From Cenococcum geophilum (taxonomy: Eukaryota), in the NCBI GenBank assembly GCA_050273025.1, contig CP158635.1, positions 4,340,001 to 4,404,000 of the forward strand: 64,000 bases of DNA. The letters run 5' to 3'. Both the position numbers and the translations under genes were made by a program. This document shows, in pieces, positions 1,961 to 51,886 of the stretch. Under the pieces are notes generated by a model, which saw only the letters and a list, made by a program, of their open reading frames with translations, made no database searches and was not told where the DNA came from. Position 1 is the stretch's first letter. Every line of letters begins with the position of its first letter.

Positions 1961-2129
1961 CTGGCTATCGTTCTGGTGTCTTCCTAGGTAGGGAGAATGT
2001 AAGGAAGGGTAAAAAATGAGGTGGCTACCTAGGTGTATATAGGGGGTATACTTGGCAGAGGCACGTGTAGAGGCTATCGGGAATATAGCGGGGACCCGAT
2101 AGTAGTGTATCGCGCGCACACACAAAGGC

Positions 2130-2995
2130 TTTGTGTAGAGCTTCGTGTAGAGCCTCCGTATGCAGGGCTTCGCGCAGAGCCTCGTGTAGAGCTTCGCGCA
2201 GAGCCTCGTGCAGAGCCTCTATATGTAGAGCTTCGTGTAGAGCTTCGTAGAGCTTTATGCAGAGCTTCGTGTAGAGCTTTATATAGAGCTTTGTGCAGAG
2301 CTTCGTGTAGAGCTTCGTGCAGAGCCTCTGTACGTAGAGCTTCGTGTAGAGCTTCGTGCAGAGCCTTGTGTAGAGCTTCGTGTAGAGCTTCGTGCAGAGC
2401 CTCGTGTAGAGCCTCTATATGCAGAGCTTTGTGTAGAGCCTCGTGTAGAGCCTCGTGCAAAGCTTCGTGTAGAGCTTCGTGTAGAGCTTTGTGTAGAGCT
2501 TCGTGCAGAGCTTCGTGCAGAGCTTCGTGCAGAGCTTCGTGCAGAGCTTCGTGCAGAGCTTCGTGCAGAGCTTCGTGCAGAGCTTCGTGCAGAGCTTCGT
2601 GCAGAGCTTCGTGCAGAGCTTCGTGCAGAGCTTCGTGCAGAGCTTCGTGCAGAGCTTCGTGCAGAGCTTCGTGCAGAGCTTCGTGCAGAGCTTCGTGCAG
2701 AGCTTCGTGCAGAGCTTCGTGCAGAGCTTCGTGCAGAGCTTCGTGTAGAGCCTCGTGCAAAGCCTCTGTACGCAAAGCTTCGTGTAGAGCCTCGTGTAGA
2801 GCCTCGTGCAAAGCTTCGTATAGAGCTTCGTGCAGAGCTTCGTGCAGAGCTTCGTGTAGAGCTTCGTGTAGAGCTTCGTGTAGAGCTTCGTGTAGAGCTT
2901 CGTGTAGAGCTTCGTGCAGAGCCTCTGTACGCAGAGCTTTATGTAGAGCCTTGTGTAGAACCTCGTCTAAAGCTTCGTGTAGAGCTTCGTGCAGC
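2130..2995. repeat. 12-bp satellite (GTGCAGAGCTTC)n, about 70 units
   Basis: Perfect core of about 20 units at 2503-2745, with degenerate flanking units. Confidence 0.95.
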
Positions 2996-4177
2996 GCTTT
3001 ATGCAGTTTTGTGGTATTTTTGTTACATTTTTGTTGCATTTTTGTTGCAGCCAAAAATTAGGGTCTACTTAAGTCGCTTAAGTCGCAATTTTAGTAATTT
3101 ATATAAAGTAGCCTGCAAATCGCTGCAAATCGCCGCAAATTGCCAAAATTGCGACTTAAGCGAGTTAAGCAGACCCCAATTTTCGGCTGCAACAACGCGC
3201 CCAAAAAAAAATTTCCTGATGGGATAGAGGGAGGATTATATTACTATATTTACAATAGGCTTTAAACCGTAGATTACTAGGCGGTAATATATTAACACGT
3301 TTATTAACCTAATATAGGGCTGCGTAGAAGTTATAGGTAATATCTATAGGACCGAGATCTAGCTACTCCATAATATGGTAGACTATAGTAATAGGACCAC
3401 AATCTAGCTGCTCCGCAATAGGGCGGACTATAGTAATAGGCCTAATATCTAATTGGCCCGTAATAGGGCGGACCGTAGTAGGCCGCGGCTAGATAGATAT
3501 GGGTGGTATAAGGAGGCAGTAGCGGAGGTAGTAGCGGCTGTAGTAGCGGCTACAGTTTAGTTTATAGGCTGCGGAGGGTTTGCTAAAAGTCGTTGTTAAA
3601 ATCGTCCTTTTTTTTCTCCTATATATAGAGTTAGAAAGGCAATAAGTAAAAAAAGAGAATAAAAAGAATTAACTCTATAAGATTTACAGGTTTTATATAG
3701 AGCTCTTTAGCGGGTTAGTATAAAGTTAGCGGAAGGGCGACTCTATTTATAGGCGTTGCAAAATATATAATTAGAAGGCATTTAGATAGTAGGTAGGGAG
3801 TATAGTAGGTAGGGTAGTAATATATAGAAGATATTCGAGTAGTAAGGGGTAGAAAGAGGCTATAAGGTTGTAAATTTAATGGGGTAGCACGTAAGGTAGC
3901 ACGTCCCCTTATTATATAACCCGAACCAATTTTTAACTAATTAGAACCTTAGGTTTAACCCAAACTTAGTATATATTAAATTATAGGAAGCAAATCTAAT
4001 AGCGCGAAAGCTTATTTCCGCTATAGTGGGTATATTAGTAAAGGAGAGTGAGATTTTATGATAAGGTGTTATTATTATATAAAGGAAGGCGTGGCTATAC
4101 CTTAAGCTTATAATATTTAATTTGTATATATAATAGGTGCCTGCAAGTAGGCGTATACTTAAGTTAAAAATCTACTA

Positions 4178-7020: not shown

Positions 7021-10000
7021 TTACCACATTTCGTCCTCCTTCGTGGGTTCCGAATCGTCGAATAACGTTTGCCCGTAGTAGGGCTGTCGAGATTCAGGTT
7101 TGCCCCCAGGATGGCCCAGGTAGTTTTGCCCACTGGCAACGCTGTACGAACTTCCATTTGTATTACTATGCGATGAATTTTTCGATGTATGCGAGTGTTG
7201 GGAGATGCGTGAGTCCGGCCTACTCTGTACTTCGTTTTCTGGTGGGGGCTCTGGGCTGAGTGTCTCCGCATCATTTCCAGACAAATGTCCGGGCGGGATT
7301 CCAGACGCGTTCTTCGAACTTTCAGACTGTTCCTGCTGCTACTTCAAGGTTAGTAAAACCAGCAATTAGAAAAAAACGTTAGATATCTGAAAATCTCACC
7401 TGCTGGTACCTCTGATATTGAGCAAACTCCTCTGGCTGATCCTTCTTCTGTTGCTGTTGCTGCTGTTGTTGTGCTTGACGCTGTTGCTGTTTCTGTTGTG
7501 CAGAATGCCCGATCTGGATTTGAGGATGCATTTGTTGCACCTTAGCAAGGTAAGAGTACATAAAATTGCTCAACAGAACCTGGGAGTACAGCTCGCGGCG
7601 GGGGTTAGCAAGCTTGATGTGGGCCATCCGGTAGATGGCGCGCTCTTCCAGAATTGAGAAACGAGTCCAGTTGTAGTCAATGTCTGGCTTGAGAATCCGT
7701 GGCGGTGGTTCTGGTGAAAGACCGCGCATTGAGCTTCCCTTTTTATGGGTTGATTCTTTCTCGCTCTTTTTCTTGCCTCCACCGAAGAGCGATGAGAAGA
7801 TACCTGAATCTTTCTCCTTCTTAGAGTCACCACTAGAGGACTTGCGAGTGCTCTCCTTCTTGCGCTCTTCTTCAAGCTTAATAGTATCTCGGTCAAGAAC
7901 AAGGCTCTCTCGCCCTCTGCCACCATCTATAGATGTTTGAAGCAAGTCGAGCCGAGTATTGTCATGAGACTTATCGGCTGCTTTGGTAAGCTTCGTCTTG
8001 GTTTTCTTTACAGCTTCCTTCTCTTCCTTCTCCTTCCTTTCACGTTCTTTTTCCTTCTCTTTGTCGTCACCACCCAGAAGCCAGCCCCAGCTAGTTTTCC
8101 TCGATCCACCTTCAGAAGCATCTTTCTTCTCTTTAGACTTCTTATCGGATTTCTTCTCATCCGCAAGTGTTGGAATGAAAGATAGAGCGTCCGTGCGTGT
8201 ACTGTTTCCTGGGAGAGGGGATGGATGAGAGGCCATGTCATCTAATGTTTGATTATGTGCTTTGATTGGCGTGCCCGGTCGATGCATGGGAGGCCTGCTT
8301 GGAGGCTGCCTTGGAGCAGGGGCTCTGGGAGGCTGGGGATGAATCTGATTATTAAAGGATGGTGGAGCCTCGCGCGATGAATTACGTTCCGGTAGCTGTA
8401 AGAGTGGTGTTCTCTGGGGTTCCTGAGAGGGCGGTGGTGTCTCGATAATCTGTGGAACTTGTTGAGGAGGCACATAACCGGGTAATGGAGCGGTCGTCCG
8501 GCCATTAGATGCAATTCGGGAGTGGAATGGTTTAGCAGGAGGTGACCTCCCCTGTTCCAATTCGGGTGGAGGGCTGACGGATTTTTGAACGGGAGGCTCT
8601 TCCGGTGCGGGGAGGGGAGATGTCAAAATGGGGGGAGACCGCTTTCGAGTAGGACGCGAGAAATTCTCTGTAGGTTCTGGTCGAAGATGAATTGGCTCCG
8701 ATTGTATCCTAGTAAGTCCCATAACCGGGAGGTCTGGCGTGGTATTTTTGATTGGAGAAGATGCTGGAGACTCTTCGGTGTCTGTTTCTGACTGCCTTCC
8801 AACTATACGTCTTGAGAATGGCACCCGCTCTCCCTTGCGGAGACTTCCGCGCCTATAGTTCGTTCGGGTAGACCTCTTCAAAGTTTGGCCGACAGGTTTT
8901 GCAGGGAGAATAGGCATGTCTTCGGTCATTGAAACCTCGACACCAGAATCTGAGGATCTGCGAGTAGAATCTATGCTCATCCGACGCATCAGACTTGTAG
9001 GATCGTCGACTAGATGCTCCAATTCAGGGAGGTTGCCCAAGTTTCCATTCGCCGCTCCTTGTTCTGTGACGGACCTGTTCCTCTCTAATCTTTCTGCCCC
9101 ATCCCGATACCCATTTGGACTGTCAATCTGTCTTGAGAGCATCGACTTCTTTCTCCGAAGCCCTCCACCTGATCCCATCCTTCCTAGACCATCTGGGGAT
9201 AAGGACTCTTCCCCACCAGACCTCCGCCTTATTTTATCCACCTTTTCCTCAATAAATGTTTTGAACTCTTTGGGTGCAAGCTCCGGATGTAGTCGTGCGG
9301 GAACCCAGAACAGCTTTGAGGGGTCTTCGTCATCAGAGAAATTTGCAGGTGCTACTGAAGATGCTCCGAAGCCAGAACCAAAAGTTGGAAGATCAGGGTC
9401 CGAAGAATTCACATCCATTGACATACGCCGTATTGCCTGAAGGTTGCTAAGCTCTTGTGCTACAGCAGCTGGACTCGACTCGTAGTCTATGTCATTGAGA
9501 GGGAATTGTTGCGAAGCAGTGTCGGAATTTGTTCGAGTGAGTGGCGGCGGTGACAGTGGCCCGCTTTGATTTTCGCGGCCAAAGGAAGAACTCCGTGTAG
9601 AGAGCATCTTAGGAGATCCATTCGCATGGGGAGGCGATTTCTCATTCGACATTGTGCGGCTAAGAGGTGACCTGGGTGGTGAACTTTGAGCAGCATTGAA
9701 GGATAGGGCTGATTCAAAACTATCACCCAACGGAGAAGTTATGAAGCTCAGAGGCCTTGAATCGCGCTTGTTGAAGTCCATGTCCCCATACATATCCCCG
9801 ATGGCTTCGGTGACGTGATGACTGTCGTCGCTTATTGAGATTTGGGGAGCATGTCCGCGTCTGCTCTGATACATTCGCTCAAGCTCTCGTGCTCTTTGTG
9901 TGGACTGTTGGACATGCAAGGATTTGATTAGCATCTGGAAGCCGATGTTGCACGGGAATGGGGGACGGAGACGGGGACGGGGAGAGGCGTAGCTGGTCAA

Positions 10001-10131
10001 GGGGACAAGTGAACAGGTCGTTGCATAGCCAAGAGGCCCAGGGCACGACAGTTGTGGTAGACCTTCACAGCAGTGCAGTATGTGTCGCATTCGCGCCGCA
10101 GATGTTGGGAGACGGGACTTCTCACCTGCAT
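7021..10131 (-). CDS. ZDS1: Zds1-like protein (Zds_C domain; PP2A-Cdc55 regulator family), ~942 aa. Exons 10131-10126, 9904-7400, 7338-7021
   Basis: C-terminal DIDYNWTRFSILEERAIYRMAHIKLANPRRELYSQVLLSNFMYSYL is Zds_C; also the conserved LFWVPARLHPELAPKEF block. Intron 1 is ATGCAG|GTGAGA...GCTAAT...CAACAG. Intron 2 is CAG|GTGAGA...ACTAAC...TAG, in frame with the terminal ORF ending ...DEMW-TAA. Composition is un-RIPped. Confidence 0.92.
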
Positions 10132-10989
10132 AGCTGGGAGCTCGAGGAATGCAGATCCTAGTCGCGACGGGGCTGCCACAGGACAGGCTCACTAGAGAAC
10201 GGCTCCAGGGTTGTGGGATTAATATCATCGAAAGACAAGGGCGGAAGAGCAATAAGAACAGAGGTCGAGCATGTCCCTCTTGGGCGCCAGGGGATAGAGT
10301 GCCTTCTTTTGTGGTAGGGCGGAGGGAGCCTCGCTAAAGCCGTGGAACACGCCCGGCGAACAAACCAAAACGCCAGGACGGAGCACATCTAAAGGATTCA
10401 CTTCGAGAAGGCGGAGCAAGCTGGGAAAGGGATTGTAATTATTGTGATCGTCGCCTTAAGGCCATAATAATACACCCCGACATGGCAGACTCTCTACATG
10501 ACCAACACCAACTAGCCACCCCTTCATGCATCCTTACAACCCAGTTTTCTGAATACGGGACTGTATATATATGAGGCTTATATTCACGGTACTTTGCCAT
10601 TCCCAATCGCAAGTCACGGGATTCTCAGCATTAATCTAGCTACCGTCAATTTGGGTATAGAAGCTGATATTCTAAAATCTTTTTAATTAGTTAGACGGCC
10701 TACCGCCAAGGCAGAAAAACATTCTGCCGGTAGAATTCTGCCATATCATCAAGCGTTCTACCAAGTTTGTTTTTAGCAGCTTAATTCCGCAGCTTCTAAG
10801 CTCCTTTTAATATTCTAATTAGCTACTAAAAGATCTACCGCTAAACGTTCTATAGGTGGCTATAATTTAGCTATAAAGGCTTAAATTATAGCTCTTAAAC
10901 AAGGCTCTAACTTACGCCTATTAATATTAATTAATTATATATAACGTATAGAACATTTAACATCTTCTTTAGTATAGCAACTCTCCTAA

Positions 10990-46728: not shown

Positions 46729-47459
46729 ATTTTAGCTTAAGTAGTAGGGAAGTAGTCCGCATTATCTTTAAGCTTATCCTATAATTAAAGCTTCTAATTA
46801 TTAAATATAGGGTTAGTTCTATCTATAAGCAATAAGGGGTCCACAACTTTTGCGGACCGCAATAATACTAATACTATATATTAGGCTAGGGCCTTAAGGA
46901 TTATAGTAAGTCTTTAGGTATTTAATAACTCTTTACTAGGTATAGGGGGTTCTTTAGCTTTAACCAGCTCCTAAAGTTATTTAATTTTAGTATTAGCTGC
47001 TATAAGCTCTACCTAGATGTTTAAGTTAGTTACTGTTTTATTATTAGAGGTATTTAAGGGTCCTATAGCTGCTTTGCCGGCCGCTATAGTTTTTAGCATA
47101 GTAATACGGTTATTAGGGTAACTTTTAGTAGGATTCTATAGGGGTTCTGGTTTATACATGTTCTATAGGTCTTATTATTCTTTTCTATTCTTCTAGTTTT
47201 ATTTTATTCTTTAAGTTCTAGTAATATAGTAATGTGCACGACCAGCTTCTACCCCCCCCCTAGAAAAATATTATTTCGCTTCAGTATGCGAGCTCGCTAA
47301 ATTGCCACTAACTGTATATAGTAATTGTAGCGAAGCCGTATGCTTGGCTGTAAGAACCTTTGCTTTTAACGGGCTTAAAGCTATTTATAATTGGTCTTCC
47401 TCCGCAGTATCGTGATCTTTGTTAAATATCGTAAGGTTTCTATCTATACTATTTAAAAT

Positions 47460-48494
47460 ATGGCTTCGCGAATAGGCCTATATTAGCACGCCCTAATTAA
47501 GAATCTTCTTTAACTTAGAGTAACTTAAGCGGAGTGTGCCTTTACCGCTAGTTGTATAACTCGCTTAATTACCGCGATTAAGAGGAACTTGCGGATATTT
47601 AGATTAACTTAGGCGCCTCTAAATAGTAAAGGTGGCCAGTTTTTACTAAGCAATTAAATAATGGTGGTAATACTAATGCGGCTAGAGGAAAAGCTAACTT
47701 TCTTTAGCGATGAGTTATAGTGGTTAATTTATAATGTCTTTGGTGTTATAGTAAGCCGCTATATAATATTTTAAGAGCTCTATTTAGCTAGCTGGATAAG
47801 AAAGCGGGTAAGCTAATTAGATCCTCCTGTTATAGAGCCTAGAGTAGCTTATATAAAGTAATATTGCTAGGTAGCCCTAGAGCGTAGCTCTTACAATTAT
47901 AATATATATTTTGCTATTATATTACAGTATACCGCTAATTAATTGGTATTTATGGATAAGTTAGGTATAGATTCGAAGACGGGCGTACGGAAGACTGGCT
48001 GGGCTTTTTTTAGTATTGCACTAGTGTTATATACGCCATATAATTAGGGTAAGACGAGGCTTAATATACTGCCTGCGTATATAGTTAACGGCGTACTAGT
48101 AGCCTTAGTATATAAGGGCTTAATAAATAGCGAAGGCTTTAAGTTCTGGGTGGCAAATACTCTTCTACCGCGGTATAATCCCTTTCCTACTAAGCGATTA
48201 GTAGTAGTTATAGATAACGCCAGCTTTTATTACTTAGAGAGGATATAGGCTCTCTTTAACGCCTTTAGAGTTAAGCTTATATATTTATCCGTGTACTTAC
48301 CTAATTTAAATCTAATTAAAGAGTTTTTTGGAGAGCTAAAAGCTTTTATTCGGCGGGAGTGGTTCTCTTAAATAGAGCACCCTAAAAGCTTTAACTATAG
48401 CTTTAAAGCCTTTCTTCTTTAGTATATAGATAAGGTTGGTAGTAAGAGCGAGAGCGTAAGAGGATATTTCTGATATAGTGGGTACAATTGCTAA
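47460..48494 (+). pseudogene. RIP-inactivated Tc1-like DD34E transposase (~344 aa)
   Basis: ATG at 47460. LVFMD(ES)G, VxDNASF and YSPDLNPIEEFF (de-RIPped), with 34 residues between the second D and the E. In-frame stops are RIP-type. Confidence 0.9.
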
Positions 48495-48764
48495 GGGTTT
48501 TAGTGTAAGGAAAGATCGATTTTTGGTAGCGTTCTTAATTATATAAATATACTAAAAGGCTTTAATATCTTATATATATAGGGTATCTTTATTACTACAG
48601 AGGCGCTAGTAGTAAGGAAGACACCCTATATTTTACTAATTAAAGGTTATCTATGTCTTAAAAAACCCCTATAGGGCGTCTCTACTACTGTAGTGATGCT
48701 AGCAGTAATAGAGACACCCTATATTCTGCTAATTATCTATATCTTAGAAACCTTTAAGCTAAGT

Positions 48765-50850
48765 TTAATATTTATTTGCCTACTTCTTTAAATCCTTTTA
48801 TAGCCGCCTTGTAACACCTAATTTAATACTAGCCTATATAAGTTCCTTAATAGGATTAGCATTATTAGATTTATTATATAGGAGCTCTAAATCCCATCTT
48901 AGATTATAGACGATTTTGTGTACCGCCTTAAAGTTAGCCTCCTAGTTAAGATTGCTAGATATACTCTACTTCTAATATACAAAGAACTTCTCTAAATCCT
49001 TTATATAGTTAATACCTTAACGTGTTCCACTACCGAGCTACGCACTCTACCGAGCTGCGCACTCCAAAAACCACCAAAAATCGGAAAAACTGCACCTTAA
49101 TATCTCAACAATGGCTTAATAATAAATTCTAAAATTTTATAATTAGCCTTTTATACTTATTCTAAACCTCTTATTAGATTTAAAAAGTAATCTATTAAGT
49201 AGCTCTAGAGATATCGCAATTTAGCTTAAAATTAGGGGCTAAAACCTAATATCTTAATAACGGCCAGGCTTATTACGCTAGAATTTTATTAAGAGTCTTA
49301 ATATAGGTATAAAAGGCTAATTATAAAATTTCGGAATTTATTATTAAGCCGTTGTCAAGATATTAAGGTGCAGTTTTTCCGATTTTTGGTGGTTTTTAGG
49401 GTGCGTAGCTCGGTAGGGTGCGCAGCTTGGTGGTGGAACACGTTATAGGCGGCGTATTAGTAATATAGGTAAGGATAATAATATTAGTCGGCTTACTGCT
49501 ATAGGAGTTTGCTAATTTGGTACTAGACTTATAGAGCTAATATAAAAGTAATTAATAACGCCTAGAGTACTAGTAGTAGAGCTCTTACCGGAGGCTAATT
49601 GGCGTACTCTTCTACTGTTATTTCCTTTACCTACTATTCTCTTAGTAAGCCGCGTAGTAAGCTAATGAGGTGGATTCTAAATATTCGCAATGCCTTGCTA
49701 AATACTAGTTACCTATTCTCTTAAGTCCTTATTTATTAATTTAATGTCTACCTAGCTAAGAACGTAGTACTAATTAATATTTAGGTAGCGCTTTTTATAA
49801 AGCTAATATCTAGTAAGCTTAACCCGCAATCTTATTAAATTGGTAGCGTTACTAATAAGAAGTATATAAGGCGTTAAGCTCCGCTCCAAAATCTATAAGG
49901 GCGTTAAAACTTTATTATAAAGTTAATTAAGCATTAACGGATAAGAGCTAACTCTAGAATGAAAGGCTACTAATTAATTTATAGTTAGGGCATATATAAT
50001 TAAGAGGTTAATAGTAAGAGCCTTAATCGCGCTACTTTTATTAATATGCTTCGCCCATAATATAAGCTAAGTATTAATCTTCTGCCACTAGGCTATAACC
50101 TTAACTTCTATTACGTTAAATCTAATATTACGAACGCCTGCGTACTAAGTGTTAATTTTAGCCTTAATTGGCTAAAGCTTAATATAAATACCTTACTCTT
50201 AATAATATAGCTCTCTCTTATAAATAGGAAAGACTTAGAGTCGCTAAAGATTATAAAGCTAAAGACTTATACCAATAAGAGTTTTAGTAAAAGGCGAATC
50301 CTTTAGGTATTAAATTACTATATTATAATTATAAGTAATAAACACGCCACCACTTCTCCTCTCTATATTATTAATCTCACTCTTAAAACGTAGGCGAGGC
50401 GGTGGCGGAATTAGCTTATCCTTATACTTACTTATTAAGCGGGCCCTTAGGGGTAAGTGAGAGGCTAATAGTAAGTAAGTAATTGGAGGAGCATAAGCCC
50501 GAGGAGCATAAGCATGAGGAGTATAAGTACGAGGCCGAGGAGCATAAGCAACTTCCTAAGAGGTCGTGGCTTAATATAGTGGTGTTAATACTAGCGGCTT
50601 CTATGTCAAATACGGTGACTTATAAGATCTTAACTAAGGTAGTTTACCGTGCTGACTTTGGTAGTATCGCCAGCCTTCTTTCTCCTCCTTAATGGCCTCC
50701 GCTGCGGTTTCCGAATCGTTATCTATTTCCTTAAGCTCCTCTAGTGTAAAACCCGGCTAAACGGCGTTATATTCGCGTCTTGGCGGCTGTTATATTATAT
50801 CTAGGTAATAGCTTAACGGTAGTAGGGGCTTAGGTAATAAGGAGGGAGGA
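48765..50850 (-). pseudogene. RIP-inactivated accessory ORF2 of element G, interrupted by a MITE
   Basis: The frame is continuous after removing the MITE plus TA. Motifs WLCEKRCPN...KLxNKDLREW...I, STPGVINxFxI, PQGIDYxKDLEKFF and WDL...RRLQKDLKKW. Start is approximate. Confidence 0.75.
49020..49443. mobile_element. 424-bp MITE of the Pogo/Fot1 type
   Basis: ACGTGTTCCAC...GTGGAACACGT termini, long (~150 bp) inverted arms, TA TSD (49018-49019 and 49444-49445), non-coding. Confidence 0.92.
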
Positions 50851-51886
50851 AGGTAATTTTATTAAGTTTGTTAAGAAGGAGGACTCTCGCCCGTTAATTA
50901 AGCCGCTGCGCGTTTTAAAGGATGCATATTAAAGGCAAATTGATAATAGTACAACACGATTTTAAGTGGATGTTATAACTTTGGTAGGTTAGGTAGGTTC
51001 TATATGGCTTTAATTTAATTGTCCTAGCAACCAGGACGACCCTTGCGTGCAGGCACATGCGTTCGCTACAATTACTATATACAGTTGGTGGCAATCTAGC
51101 GAGCTCGCGTGCCGAAGCGAAATAATATTTTTCCAAGGGGGGGTAGAAGCTGGTCGTGCACATCGCTGTAGTCTTTAAGTCTACTTTTATGTTCTATTAT
51201 TATTTATAGCCTATAAATATTTTTAAGTTCCTTTTTAGAAAGAAGAGTAGATAAGCTTTAAATAATATTAGTAACTTAATTAATTAAGGCATAAGTATAG
51301 TAAAAGGGACGCGTAAGCCTATATAAGTAGTAGTCTATAAATAAGGATCTAAAGCTAAAAAAAGAAAAGAAGATAAAAGGTAGTGCCGCTTAACGTTATA
51401 TATAATCCTCTAGTTATATAACAACAATTATCTAAAACTATATAAAACTATTTGCGATTATCCACCACAATCTACTAATATCTACTAGCCACAATCCACC
51501 AGTTTTTACTAGTTTTTACTAGTTTCTACTAGTTTCCACTAGTTTTCACCCGCGCCGTAATAACTAGCTATATTAGATTATTATAGCTAATAGTTACTCC
51601 TCTATAATTCTAAATACTAAATATGTCTAATAGGCTTTATATTTTATTAGATACCTTCTTAATAAAGGTACTTCCGCTTTATAGTATAGTATTCGCCTAT
51701 CTTTATTATAGAGGGCTATTACTAGGCATAGTTCTAGCGGCTACGCGCGAATGTAAACCACCGTCATTTAACGTATGCCTTTTTTGCGATATATATATCT
51801 TAGGGGGATTCTTTAGGTATTTTTCAGGGTTCTTTTAATTAGTTTTAGTCTTTTTAGGCTAGGTGCAGCAAGAGTTCCTTTTTTTT

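Follow-up and report, generated by a model that had tools for sequence, protein, structure and literature searches.

A RIP-inactivated two-gene Tc1-like transposon in Cenococcum geophilum and the probable accessory role of its second gene

The element in the window

Tc1/mariner elements are the textbook transposons that need only their transposase, and it is for this reason that they are used as gene-transfer tools. The element considered here carries two genes. It lies on contig CP158635.1 of the Cenococcum geophilum assembly GCA_050273025.1, in a stretch of 64,000 nucleotides (positions 4,340,001 to 4,404,000 of the forward strand) that is referred to throughout as the window and numbered from its first letter, and it occupies positions 47227-51168, flanked on each side by a TA dinucleotide. 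The copy has been inactivated by repeat-induced point mutation (RIP) and belongs to a family of Tc1-like elements (DD34E type, Pfam DDE_3) in which a transposase gene and a second long open reading frame, here called ORF2, run towards each other between terminal inverted repeats (TIRs). The evidence presented below indicates that ORF2 is a gene of the family, that most of it was under purifying selection whilst the subfamilies diverged, and that its product is most likely an accessory protein of the element.

The original prediction, made from the letters of the window alone, described an element bounded by TIRs and TA dinucleotides and about 3.5 kb long once a nested miniature inverted-repeat transposable element (MITE) had been discounted. 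This description holds well, the length without the MITE being 3,516 bp and an inverted-repeat search placing at the ends TIRs of about 120 bp that are 87-91% complementary. The left terminus, TAGTAATGTGCACG, is a RIP-changed version of CAGCGATGTGCACG, and the un-RIPped terminus is found at the right end of this same copy and in two metagenomic relatives, L002 and L009. No second copy of the element was found in the 64-kb window, where only its own TIRs, the arms of the MITE and a hairpin repeat match.

The Tc1-like DD34E transposase that had been predicted was likewise recovered. A plus-strand frame beginning at 47460 matches Pfam DDE_3 with an E-value of 4.3e-14 (53 bits, compared to a cut-off of 28.6); as traced, it holds 18 in-frame stops and its end is approximate, at about 48494-48548. 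The catalytic residues are D166, D252 and, after a further 34 residues, K287. An E is found at position 287 in 4 of the 33 copies and in three of the six subfamily consensuses, and a G>A change of the RIP type would turn E into K, so that the DD34E assignment holds. Conservation among copies is good over the N-terminal 116 codons, and no helix-turn-helix family of Pfam matched the RIP-damaged translation at E <=1. The window copy thus has the TA duplication, the TIRs, the DDE_3 core and the 34-residue spacing from the second D to the E that characterise the Tc1 family, but not its single gene, because a second, convergent gene is present both here and in all 32 full-length relatives. The second gene is a departure in architecture and not in the type of transposase.

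The second gene

ORF2 is read on the minus strand from 50927 to 48729 and, with the MITE removed, comprises 591 codons with 41 in-frame stops in the window copy. The original prediction had described a long minus-strand ORF2 converging on the transposase, and whilst a frame of that length and orientation does exist, it is not open here, the longest stop-free stretch in the element region amounting to 92 aa. A word-indexed search with the X-masked ORF2 translation nevertheless retrieved P0004, a protein of 388 aa without any stops, at an E-value of 1.6e-94, and the window frame is 58% identical to it over 295 residues. Searches with P0004 and with a profile yielded further stop-free relatives, namely P0005 (354 aa), P0006 (292 aa), P0007 (241 aa), P0036 (194 aa) and a number of shorter ones, which are 77-83% identical to each other where this was measured and which, judged by eye, correspond to different subfamilies. 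Three N-terminal pieces (P0008, P0012 and P0014) start at the same methionine (MHPS.../MNPS...). An exhaustive phmmer search with the damaged ORF2 produced 28 matches at E <=0.001, all of them short pieces of the same family. On the strength of these translated sequences the ORF2 frame is far beyond chance and is a real gene of the family.

All of the protein matches to ORF2 are ENA/Logan records that represent fragments of this one family, and no NCBI/UniRef or annotated-proteome protein was among them. No host paralogue was encountered in four protein searches or among the 74 metagenome loci described in the next section, very distant host relatives being beyond the reach of such searches. 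The possibility that ORF2 is the relic of a transposase was ruled out, hhalign assigning it a probability of 0.14%.

Linkage of the two genes

A scan of metagenome contigs of the Joint Genome Institute (JGI) yielded 74 loci with a relative of ORF2, distributed over five data sets that contributed 47, 17, 7, 2 and 1 loci. In 60 of the 74 a transposase lies downstream of ORF2 on the opposite strand, in a tail-to-tail arrangement, the distance between the two being 106-477 bp in 59 loci and 1,812 bp in the remaining one, an interrupted copy; six of the 14 loci that have no transposase possess less than 250 bp of contig past ORF2. Both TIRs and everything between them are present in thirty-two copies, which measure 3,401-3,590 bp. 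TA together with the terminal motif (CAG, or the RIP-changed TAG) is found on both sides in 16 of the 31 copies with flanks, and for the remainder the extrapolated boundary was off. There are at least six subfamilies, which differ in their termini and lengths and every one of which has both genes; the window copy clusters with L002 and L009. Each of the 74 loci is AT-rich and RIP-degraded, with 26-42% GC and 10-35 stops in the part that corresponds to the 388 codons, and none resembles a host gene. Between its start and its stop, which the copies share, ORF2 has a length divisible by three in 31 of 33 of them (578-610 codons). The suggestion that ORF2 belongs to the family and is not random cargo has therefore stood up, given the tail-to-tail position in 60 of the 74 loci, the location within the TIRs of 32 copies from at least six subfamilies and, as described below, indels that keep the frame and values of dN/dS below 1.

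Copies of different subfamilies were also seen to adjoin one another directly, head to head or in tandem (L006:5109-12352, L013:5179-13143 and L059:2645-7392), as would be expected if the same AT-rich regions had received insertions more than once. At L020:3846-4535 a distant second DDE_3-like frame, with 30% identity to the window transposase, lies beside a two-gene copy.

Selection on ORF2

The comparison of subfamilies was made between de-RIP consensuses of six of them and, because RIP makes transitions only, transversions were counted first. Columns that vary by transversion between subfamilies account for 17.4% of the noncoding DNA (112/644). The corresponding figures for codon positions 1, 2 and 3 are 8.1, 3.8 and 10.2% in the transposase (chi-square p 0.007) and 9.0, 7.0 and 12.6% in codons 201-590 of ORF2 (p 0.035), with 16.9, 20.3 and 14.7% in codons 1-200 of ORF2, where there is no constraint. 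Within subfamilies transversions are rare, at approximately 0.03-0.3% of cells where the DNA is coding and 0.57% where it is not, so that decay after insertion has been essentially a matter of RIP.

Indels tell the reading frame apart from its surroundings more sharply. Between subfamilies, 22 of the 24 indels in ORF2 are multiples of three, the two exceptions (7 + 2 nt) being adjacent, compared to 16 of the 62 that lie in noncoding DNA (Fisher p 2e-8), and all 17 that fall in the fast-evolving N-terminal third preserve the frame. Estimates of dN/dS by the Nei-Gojobori method (NG86), which are rough given the state of the consensuses, ranged from 0.21-0.37 for the transposase and from 0.24-0.60 for codons 201-590 of ORF2, with 0.24-0.31 in the deepest comparisons; for codons 1-200 of ORF2 they lay between 0.38 and 0.56 in all but one pair. 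As far as the consensus sequences record it, the C-terminal two-thirds of ORF2 was under purifying selection during the divergence of the subfamilies, of roughly the order seen in the transposase, and in the N-terminal third the frame at least was maintained.

RIP damage and expression

The element sits in AT-rich DNA, a block whose GC content is about 28-38%, the host genes of the same window lying in blocks of 43-53% GC. Compared with its subfamily consensus the window copy shows 339 C>T/G>A changes and 30 other differences, a count biased by the way in which the consensus was built. The RIP indices of the element are 1.67 for TpA/ApT and 0.55 for (CpA+TpG)/(ApC+GpT), the values for a host gene of the window being 0.58 and 1.39, and where the window copy departs from P0006 it does so by changes of the RIP type (D>N, E>K, P>L/S, H>Y, C>Y, and W or Q to stop). 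The damage to the window copy is RIP, and the copy is dead, being neither translatable nor transcribed in the RNA run examined (X21, of which about 12% was read). DNA runs of two organisms hold pieces identical to the window copy.

In X21, 284 reads were placed, on the TIRs, and 282 of these lay only partly on the stretch, so that they derive from TIR-related sequences elsewhere. Such reads match only the TIRs (window 47201-47367 and 51042-51208) and then run into unlike sequence, as if TIR-derived pieces were present inside transcripts elsewhere in the genome. Pairs of the family's TIRs were also observed close together without genes, in the manner of MITEs, at L029:8685-9196, L051:8424-8786 and L060:8254-8726.

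The ORF2 protein

The stop-free relatives allow the layout of the protein to be described. ORF2 extends over approximately 580-610 codons and does not need an intron. Its N-terminal third, which is fast-evolving, consists of a basic N-terminus, an acidic stretch and a low-complexity stretch, rich in Pro, Arg and Ser, whose length varies. Next comes a middle region that is conserved, followed by a C-x3-C-x5-C...His cluster (RCKKRCPNVNWCY), which a poor model would put on a beta-hairpin, by two helices (DEDLREWVTGIQ... and PPHKLAARLAERA), by a linker containing STPGVVNHFHV that is probably disordered, and by a strongly conserved helical region of about 90 residues at the C-terminus, which has 19 invariant columns in an alignment of 25 sequences. 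The motifs that had been picked out from the damaged copy are real, appearing in the stop-free relatives as CKKRCPNVNWCY, KLMDEDLREW, STPGVVNHFHV and WDLELL...GVARRLWKDSKKW.

The loose likeness of the C-terminus to SAM domains, which the original prediction had also proposed, is at most a weak lead. The SAM families PF00536 and PF07647 gave no match at E <=10 in P0004 and 16 further ORF2 sequences, no fold match was obtained, and in feature scores from the ESM Atlas the SAM clusters reached 0.79-0.83, which are weak leads below the bar of 0.9. Ascomycete clusters scored 0.92-0.93 on the same scale, as a lead only. In structure, the C-terminal part of ORF2 resembles two further ascomycete clusters with template-modelling (TM) scores of 0.74-0.76, again a lead only, and this hints that they may be relatives of ORF2. 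An AlphaFold2 model of P0036 has four helices in residues 99-185, with a predicted local distance difference test (pLDDT) score of 51-76 by ten-residue block, and the best match of this model in a Foldseek search of the PDB had an E-value of 5.1. A Pfam scan of three translations from the window returned DDE_3 only. Four Pfam candidates, T6SS_Tle1-like_C (E 0.005), zf-IS66 (E 0.063), DUF1048 (E 0.11) and Histone_HNS_N (E 1), lie far below the cut-offs and were treated as chance.

Other features of the copy and its surroundings

The coordinates of the features of the window copy are collected in Table 1.

Table 1. Features of the two-gene element, in window coordinates
Feature	Position	Strand	Basis
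TA target-site duplication, left	47225-47226		same as TA at 51169-51170
Left TIR, about 120 bp	47227-47346	+	inverted repeats I2, I3
Tc1-like DD34E transposase pseudogene	47460-48548	+	translation and Pfam DDE_3
Putative short transposase intron	47808-47861	+	indel positions between subfamilies
Pair of hairpins, each about 56 nt, lying between the stop codons of the two genes	48576-48631, 48670-48724		inverted repeats I4, I8
ORF2 C-terminal part (conserved helical region and stop), RIP-degraded	48729-49019	-	translation, alignment to P0004-P0007
Nested unrelated MITE, 424 bp, with 174-nt arms	49020-49443		inverted repeat I1 and sequence
ORF2 N-terminal 494 codons, start codon 50927-50925, 31 in-frame stops	49446-50927	-	translation; P0004 match
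Right TIR	51050-51168	-	inverted-repeat search
TA target-site duplication, right	51169-51170		sequence

All three of the indels that distinguish subfamilies within the transposase (1, 2 and 2 nt) fall in a single stretch of about 55 nt. Across subfamilies this begins with GTAAGC and ends with CAG, TAG or AAG, the window copy ending in GTAA (a RIP-changed CAG/TAG); its length varies, from 49-57 nt as cut and 52-56 nt in the main subfamilies when the starting GTA is included, and the coding segments that flank it have lengths divisible by three in 31 of the 33 copies. These sequence features suggest that it is probably a short transposase intron, which by accident is in frame in the window copy. 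The two hairpins that separate the genes fold as RNA at -57.9 kcal/mol (z -5.5), and 21 of the 33 full-length copies have the unit in the corresponding position; Tandem Repeats Finder reported nothing in the region between the two genes. It may be guessed that the hairpins are a shared bidirectional terminator or else a small palindromic insertion.

The MITE, whose termini read ACGTGTTCCAC..., bears a TA duplication of its own at 49018-19 and 49444-45. Together with this target-site duplication it amounts to 426 bp (3 x 142), a multiple of three, so that the minus-strand frame of ORF2 continues across the insertion. A genomic contig of the DNA run X1 joins 49016 to 49443 and omits exactly 426 bp, from which it follows that a sister copy lacking the MITE exists, and the P0004 protein reads directly over the point of insertion. 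The MITE is also matched by metatranscriptome contigs (X20) and by many genomic contigs, and therefore belongs to an abundant family.

Beyond the element, the genome alternates between GC-rich and RIP-degraded AT-rich blocks, as is confirmed by an ordinary fungal host gene in a GC-rich block at window 7379-10333 on the minus strand, an open frame of 984 codons with a match to Pfam Zds_C (E 1.2e-28). At window 2033-3227, where GC is 53%, there are overlapping open frames of 183-342 codons on both strands, two of which were scanned and gave no Pfam match.

The role of the second gene

An important consideration in attempting to establish what ORF2 does is to ask by what route selection could have maintained it. 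Selection on a multi-copy element would act through the propagation of the element itself, and it is for this reason that ORF2 is most likely a protein encoded by the element to help or to regulate its own transposition. The window feature would then be a RIP-inactivated copy of a two-gene Tc1-like (DD34E, DDE_3) element with an accessory protein, a reading that we hold with some confidence, albeit far from complete. Our preferred guess is that the protein would work in the nucleus and bind either nucleic acid or the transposase, and it might, if the analogy with the second protein of PIF/Harbinger elements is a sound one, assist in transpososome assembly, import or targeting. The original prediction had suggested a transposition regulator, a targeting factor or an anti-silencing factor analogous to VANC of plant VANDAL elements, and the present data speak for none of these in particular.

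A number of results weigh against this reading. The metagenomic sample is narrower than the count of loci implies, since 71 of the 74 come from three data sets with related numbers and may represent few genomes. In eight loci there is room downstream of ORF2 but no transposase, although the BLAST layout of these looks like that of truncated or interrupted copies. The first 200 codons of ORF2 are free of any constraint by codon position and vary about as noncoding DNA does (17.4%), one pair has a dN/dS of 1.35 in this part of the gene, and the consensuses from which all such ratios were calculated are themselves still damaged by RIP, with 8-21 stops in ORF2. No RNA was found over ORF2 or the transposase of the window copy in X21 or in the metatranscriptome X20, where the reads touch the TIRs and the MITE and mostly only in part; this null result bears on the window copy and says nothing about active relatives. 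Nor does the protein resemble anything familiar. Pfam gave no match to P0004 at E <=10 and none that is credible to the 16 further ORF2 sequences, which include four full-length read-through translations, HMMER filters dropping many matches above E 0.1; a profile search of PDB sequences with ORF2 returned 0 matches at E <=10; AlphaFold2 performed poorly, with a pLDDT of 31.7 for P0004 (8 sequences), which is unusable, and of 55.9 for P0036 (25 sequences); and the best result of a VIA-align fold search, at a Z of 5.6, was to membrane-channel helices, a generic helical match.

The idea of an accessory protein can be taken a step further, and it is possible, though we put it forward tentatively, that this is a true two-component Tc1-like system. 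ORF2 would in that case be a new kind of partner, with a zinc-cluster hairpin and a C-terminal helical domain, which the DD34E transposase needs or exploits, and a comparable element of Pyrenophora tritici-repentis would belong to the same old and widespread ascomycete lineage and would not represent a recent capture.

Amongst the rival explanations the one that survives best is transduplication, in which a gene of the host, or a chimera assembled from host fragments, was captured once between the TIRs and has since been amplified as a passenger of no use to the element. In its favour, a single gene is the rule in canonical Tc1 elements, and the pace of change in the N-terminal third of ORF2 matches that of noncoding DNA. 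The similar Pyrenophora element has been read in just this way, in the part of that report drawn on here (PMC3538342). However, a passenger in the active lineage would have decayed, and ORF2 did not: it is full length, with start and stop common to 31 of the 33 copies, its indels keep the frame (22 of 24), and dN/dS is 0.24-0.60 in codons 201-590, all of this across at least six subfamilies. The searches for a host paralogue, within their reach of all but distant or unsampled parents, also failed to supply a donor. We consider transduplication unlikely.

A second rival accepts that ORF2 is selected at the level of the element but has it act on the host or on copy number, either against silencing or RIP, following the logic of VANC, or as a repressor by which the element limits itself. 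The evidence of selection would serve this explanation as well as it serves an accessory protein, and the fast-evolving N-terminal third, with its 17 frame-preserving indels, could suit the interface of an arms race. Set against this, ORF2 has no similarity to any known silencing suppressor, and every genomic copy seen in this analysis has been destroyed by RIP, so that any protection cannot have lasted. The data do not separate an action on the host from that of a helper, and we regard the former as decidedly unlikely. Lastly, the view that ORF2 is no gene at all, its long frame arising by chance when stops are ignored in AT-rich, RIP-altered DNA, would fit the window copy, which has 41 stops and is nowhere open for more than 92 aa, but is refuted by uninterrupted frames of 194-388 aa elsewhere, by the match to P0004 at 1.6e-94 and by the frame-preserving indels.

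Returning to the accessory protein, the retention under selection of a second gene of 590 codons through several subfamily divergences suggests that its product gives the element something, perhaps assistance in transposing, in targeting or in evading the defences of the host. If this is true, the interpretation of the Pyrenophora element as a transduplication would need to be revised, and the two-gene Tc1 elements of RIP-prone, plant-associated fungi would constitute a tractable system in which to study the benefit that a DNA transposon derives from an accessory protein. The element in the window is itself only a dead relic in an AT-rich isochore.

Comparison with known systems

The canonical Tc1-like elements of fungi are represented by impala and Molly. 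The present family is like the canonical DD34E elements in its TA duplication, its TIRs, its DDE_3 core and its DD34E spacing, and differs from them in being about twice the usual length, in possessing a second, convergent gene of 590 codons and in the long TIRs of about 120 bp. In another superfamily, PIF/Harbinger, the transposase is accompanied by a second, non-catalytic Myb/SANT protein that is encoded by the element and needed in trans. This two-protein layout offers a possible working analogy, but no Myb/SANT domain was detected in ORF2 with Pfam.

The closest parallel comes from Pyrenophora tritici-repentis, in which Manning et al. (2013) described a Tc1/Mariner element of 3.4 kb that carries a second, 'sequestered' ORF and of which there are 46 copies, 31 with both coding regions intact (PMC3538342). 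The claim of the original prediction, that no description of such a pairing was known, is thus wrong in general. Transcripts map to the Pyrenophora element, and both coding sequences occur together on a bacterial artificial chromosome (BAC) from Alternaria (PMC3538342), so that, on the account given there, the pairing is not confined to one species. The Pyrenophora ORF was noticed through Pfam PF08946 (Osmo_CC) and was read as a transduplication, the sections of the paper used here containing no assignment of function and no analysis of selection (PMC3538342). As those sections portray it, the Pyrenophora element resembles the present family in being a multi-copy fungal Tc1/Mariner element with two coding regions between its TIRs, and in its size (3.4 kb compared to 3.40-3.59 kb). 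However, PF08946 was absent at E <=10 from the 17 ORF2 sequences scanned, and the comparison with what is described of the Pyrenophora element covers size and architecture.

Extra genes have also been reported in two other groups of related elements. Dici1 and Dici2 of the yeast Diutina catenulata belong to the IS630-Tc1-mariner superfamily, with a TA duplication and a DD34E transposase, and their additional coding sequences (CDSs) are expressed and have been analysed for selection, the authors describing such a multi-CDS layout as unusual for the superfamily in the portion of the article cited (PMC13469147). According to the same portion, the Dici elements differ from the present family in having three CDSs with the transposase in the middle, the extra ones being a relic of a transposase that bears a homeodomain and a CDS of 143-146 aa (PMC13469147). 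ORF2 is unrelated to its own transposase and is much longer. The TBE and Tec elements of ciliates are related to Tc1/mariner, carry DD34E transposases and possess additional ORFs, which in TBE include a zinc-finger protein, on the description available from part of the source (PMC7325037). They are germline elements with three ORFs, and are likened to the present family by that description only (PMC7325037).

No publication was found that assigns a function to an ORF2 of this kind, the supplements of PMC3538342 having been searched only in part. The two-gene arrangement of the Cenococcum element is not unprecedented, and belongs with a known but little-studied group, the two-gene Tc1-like transposons of ascomycetes. 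What is new here is the evidence that the second gene is under selection.

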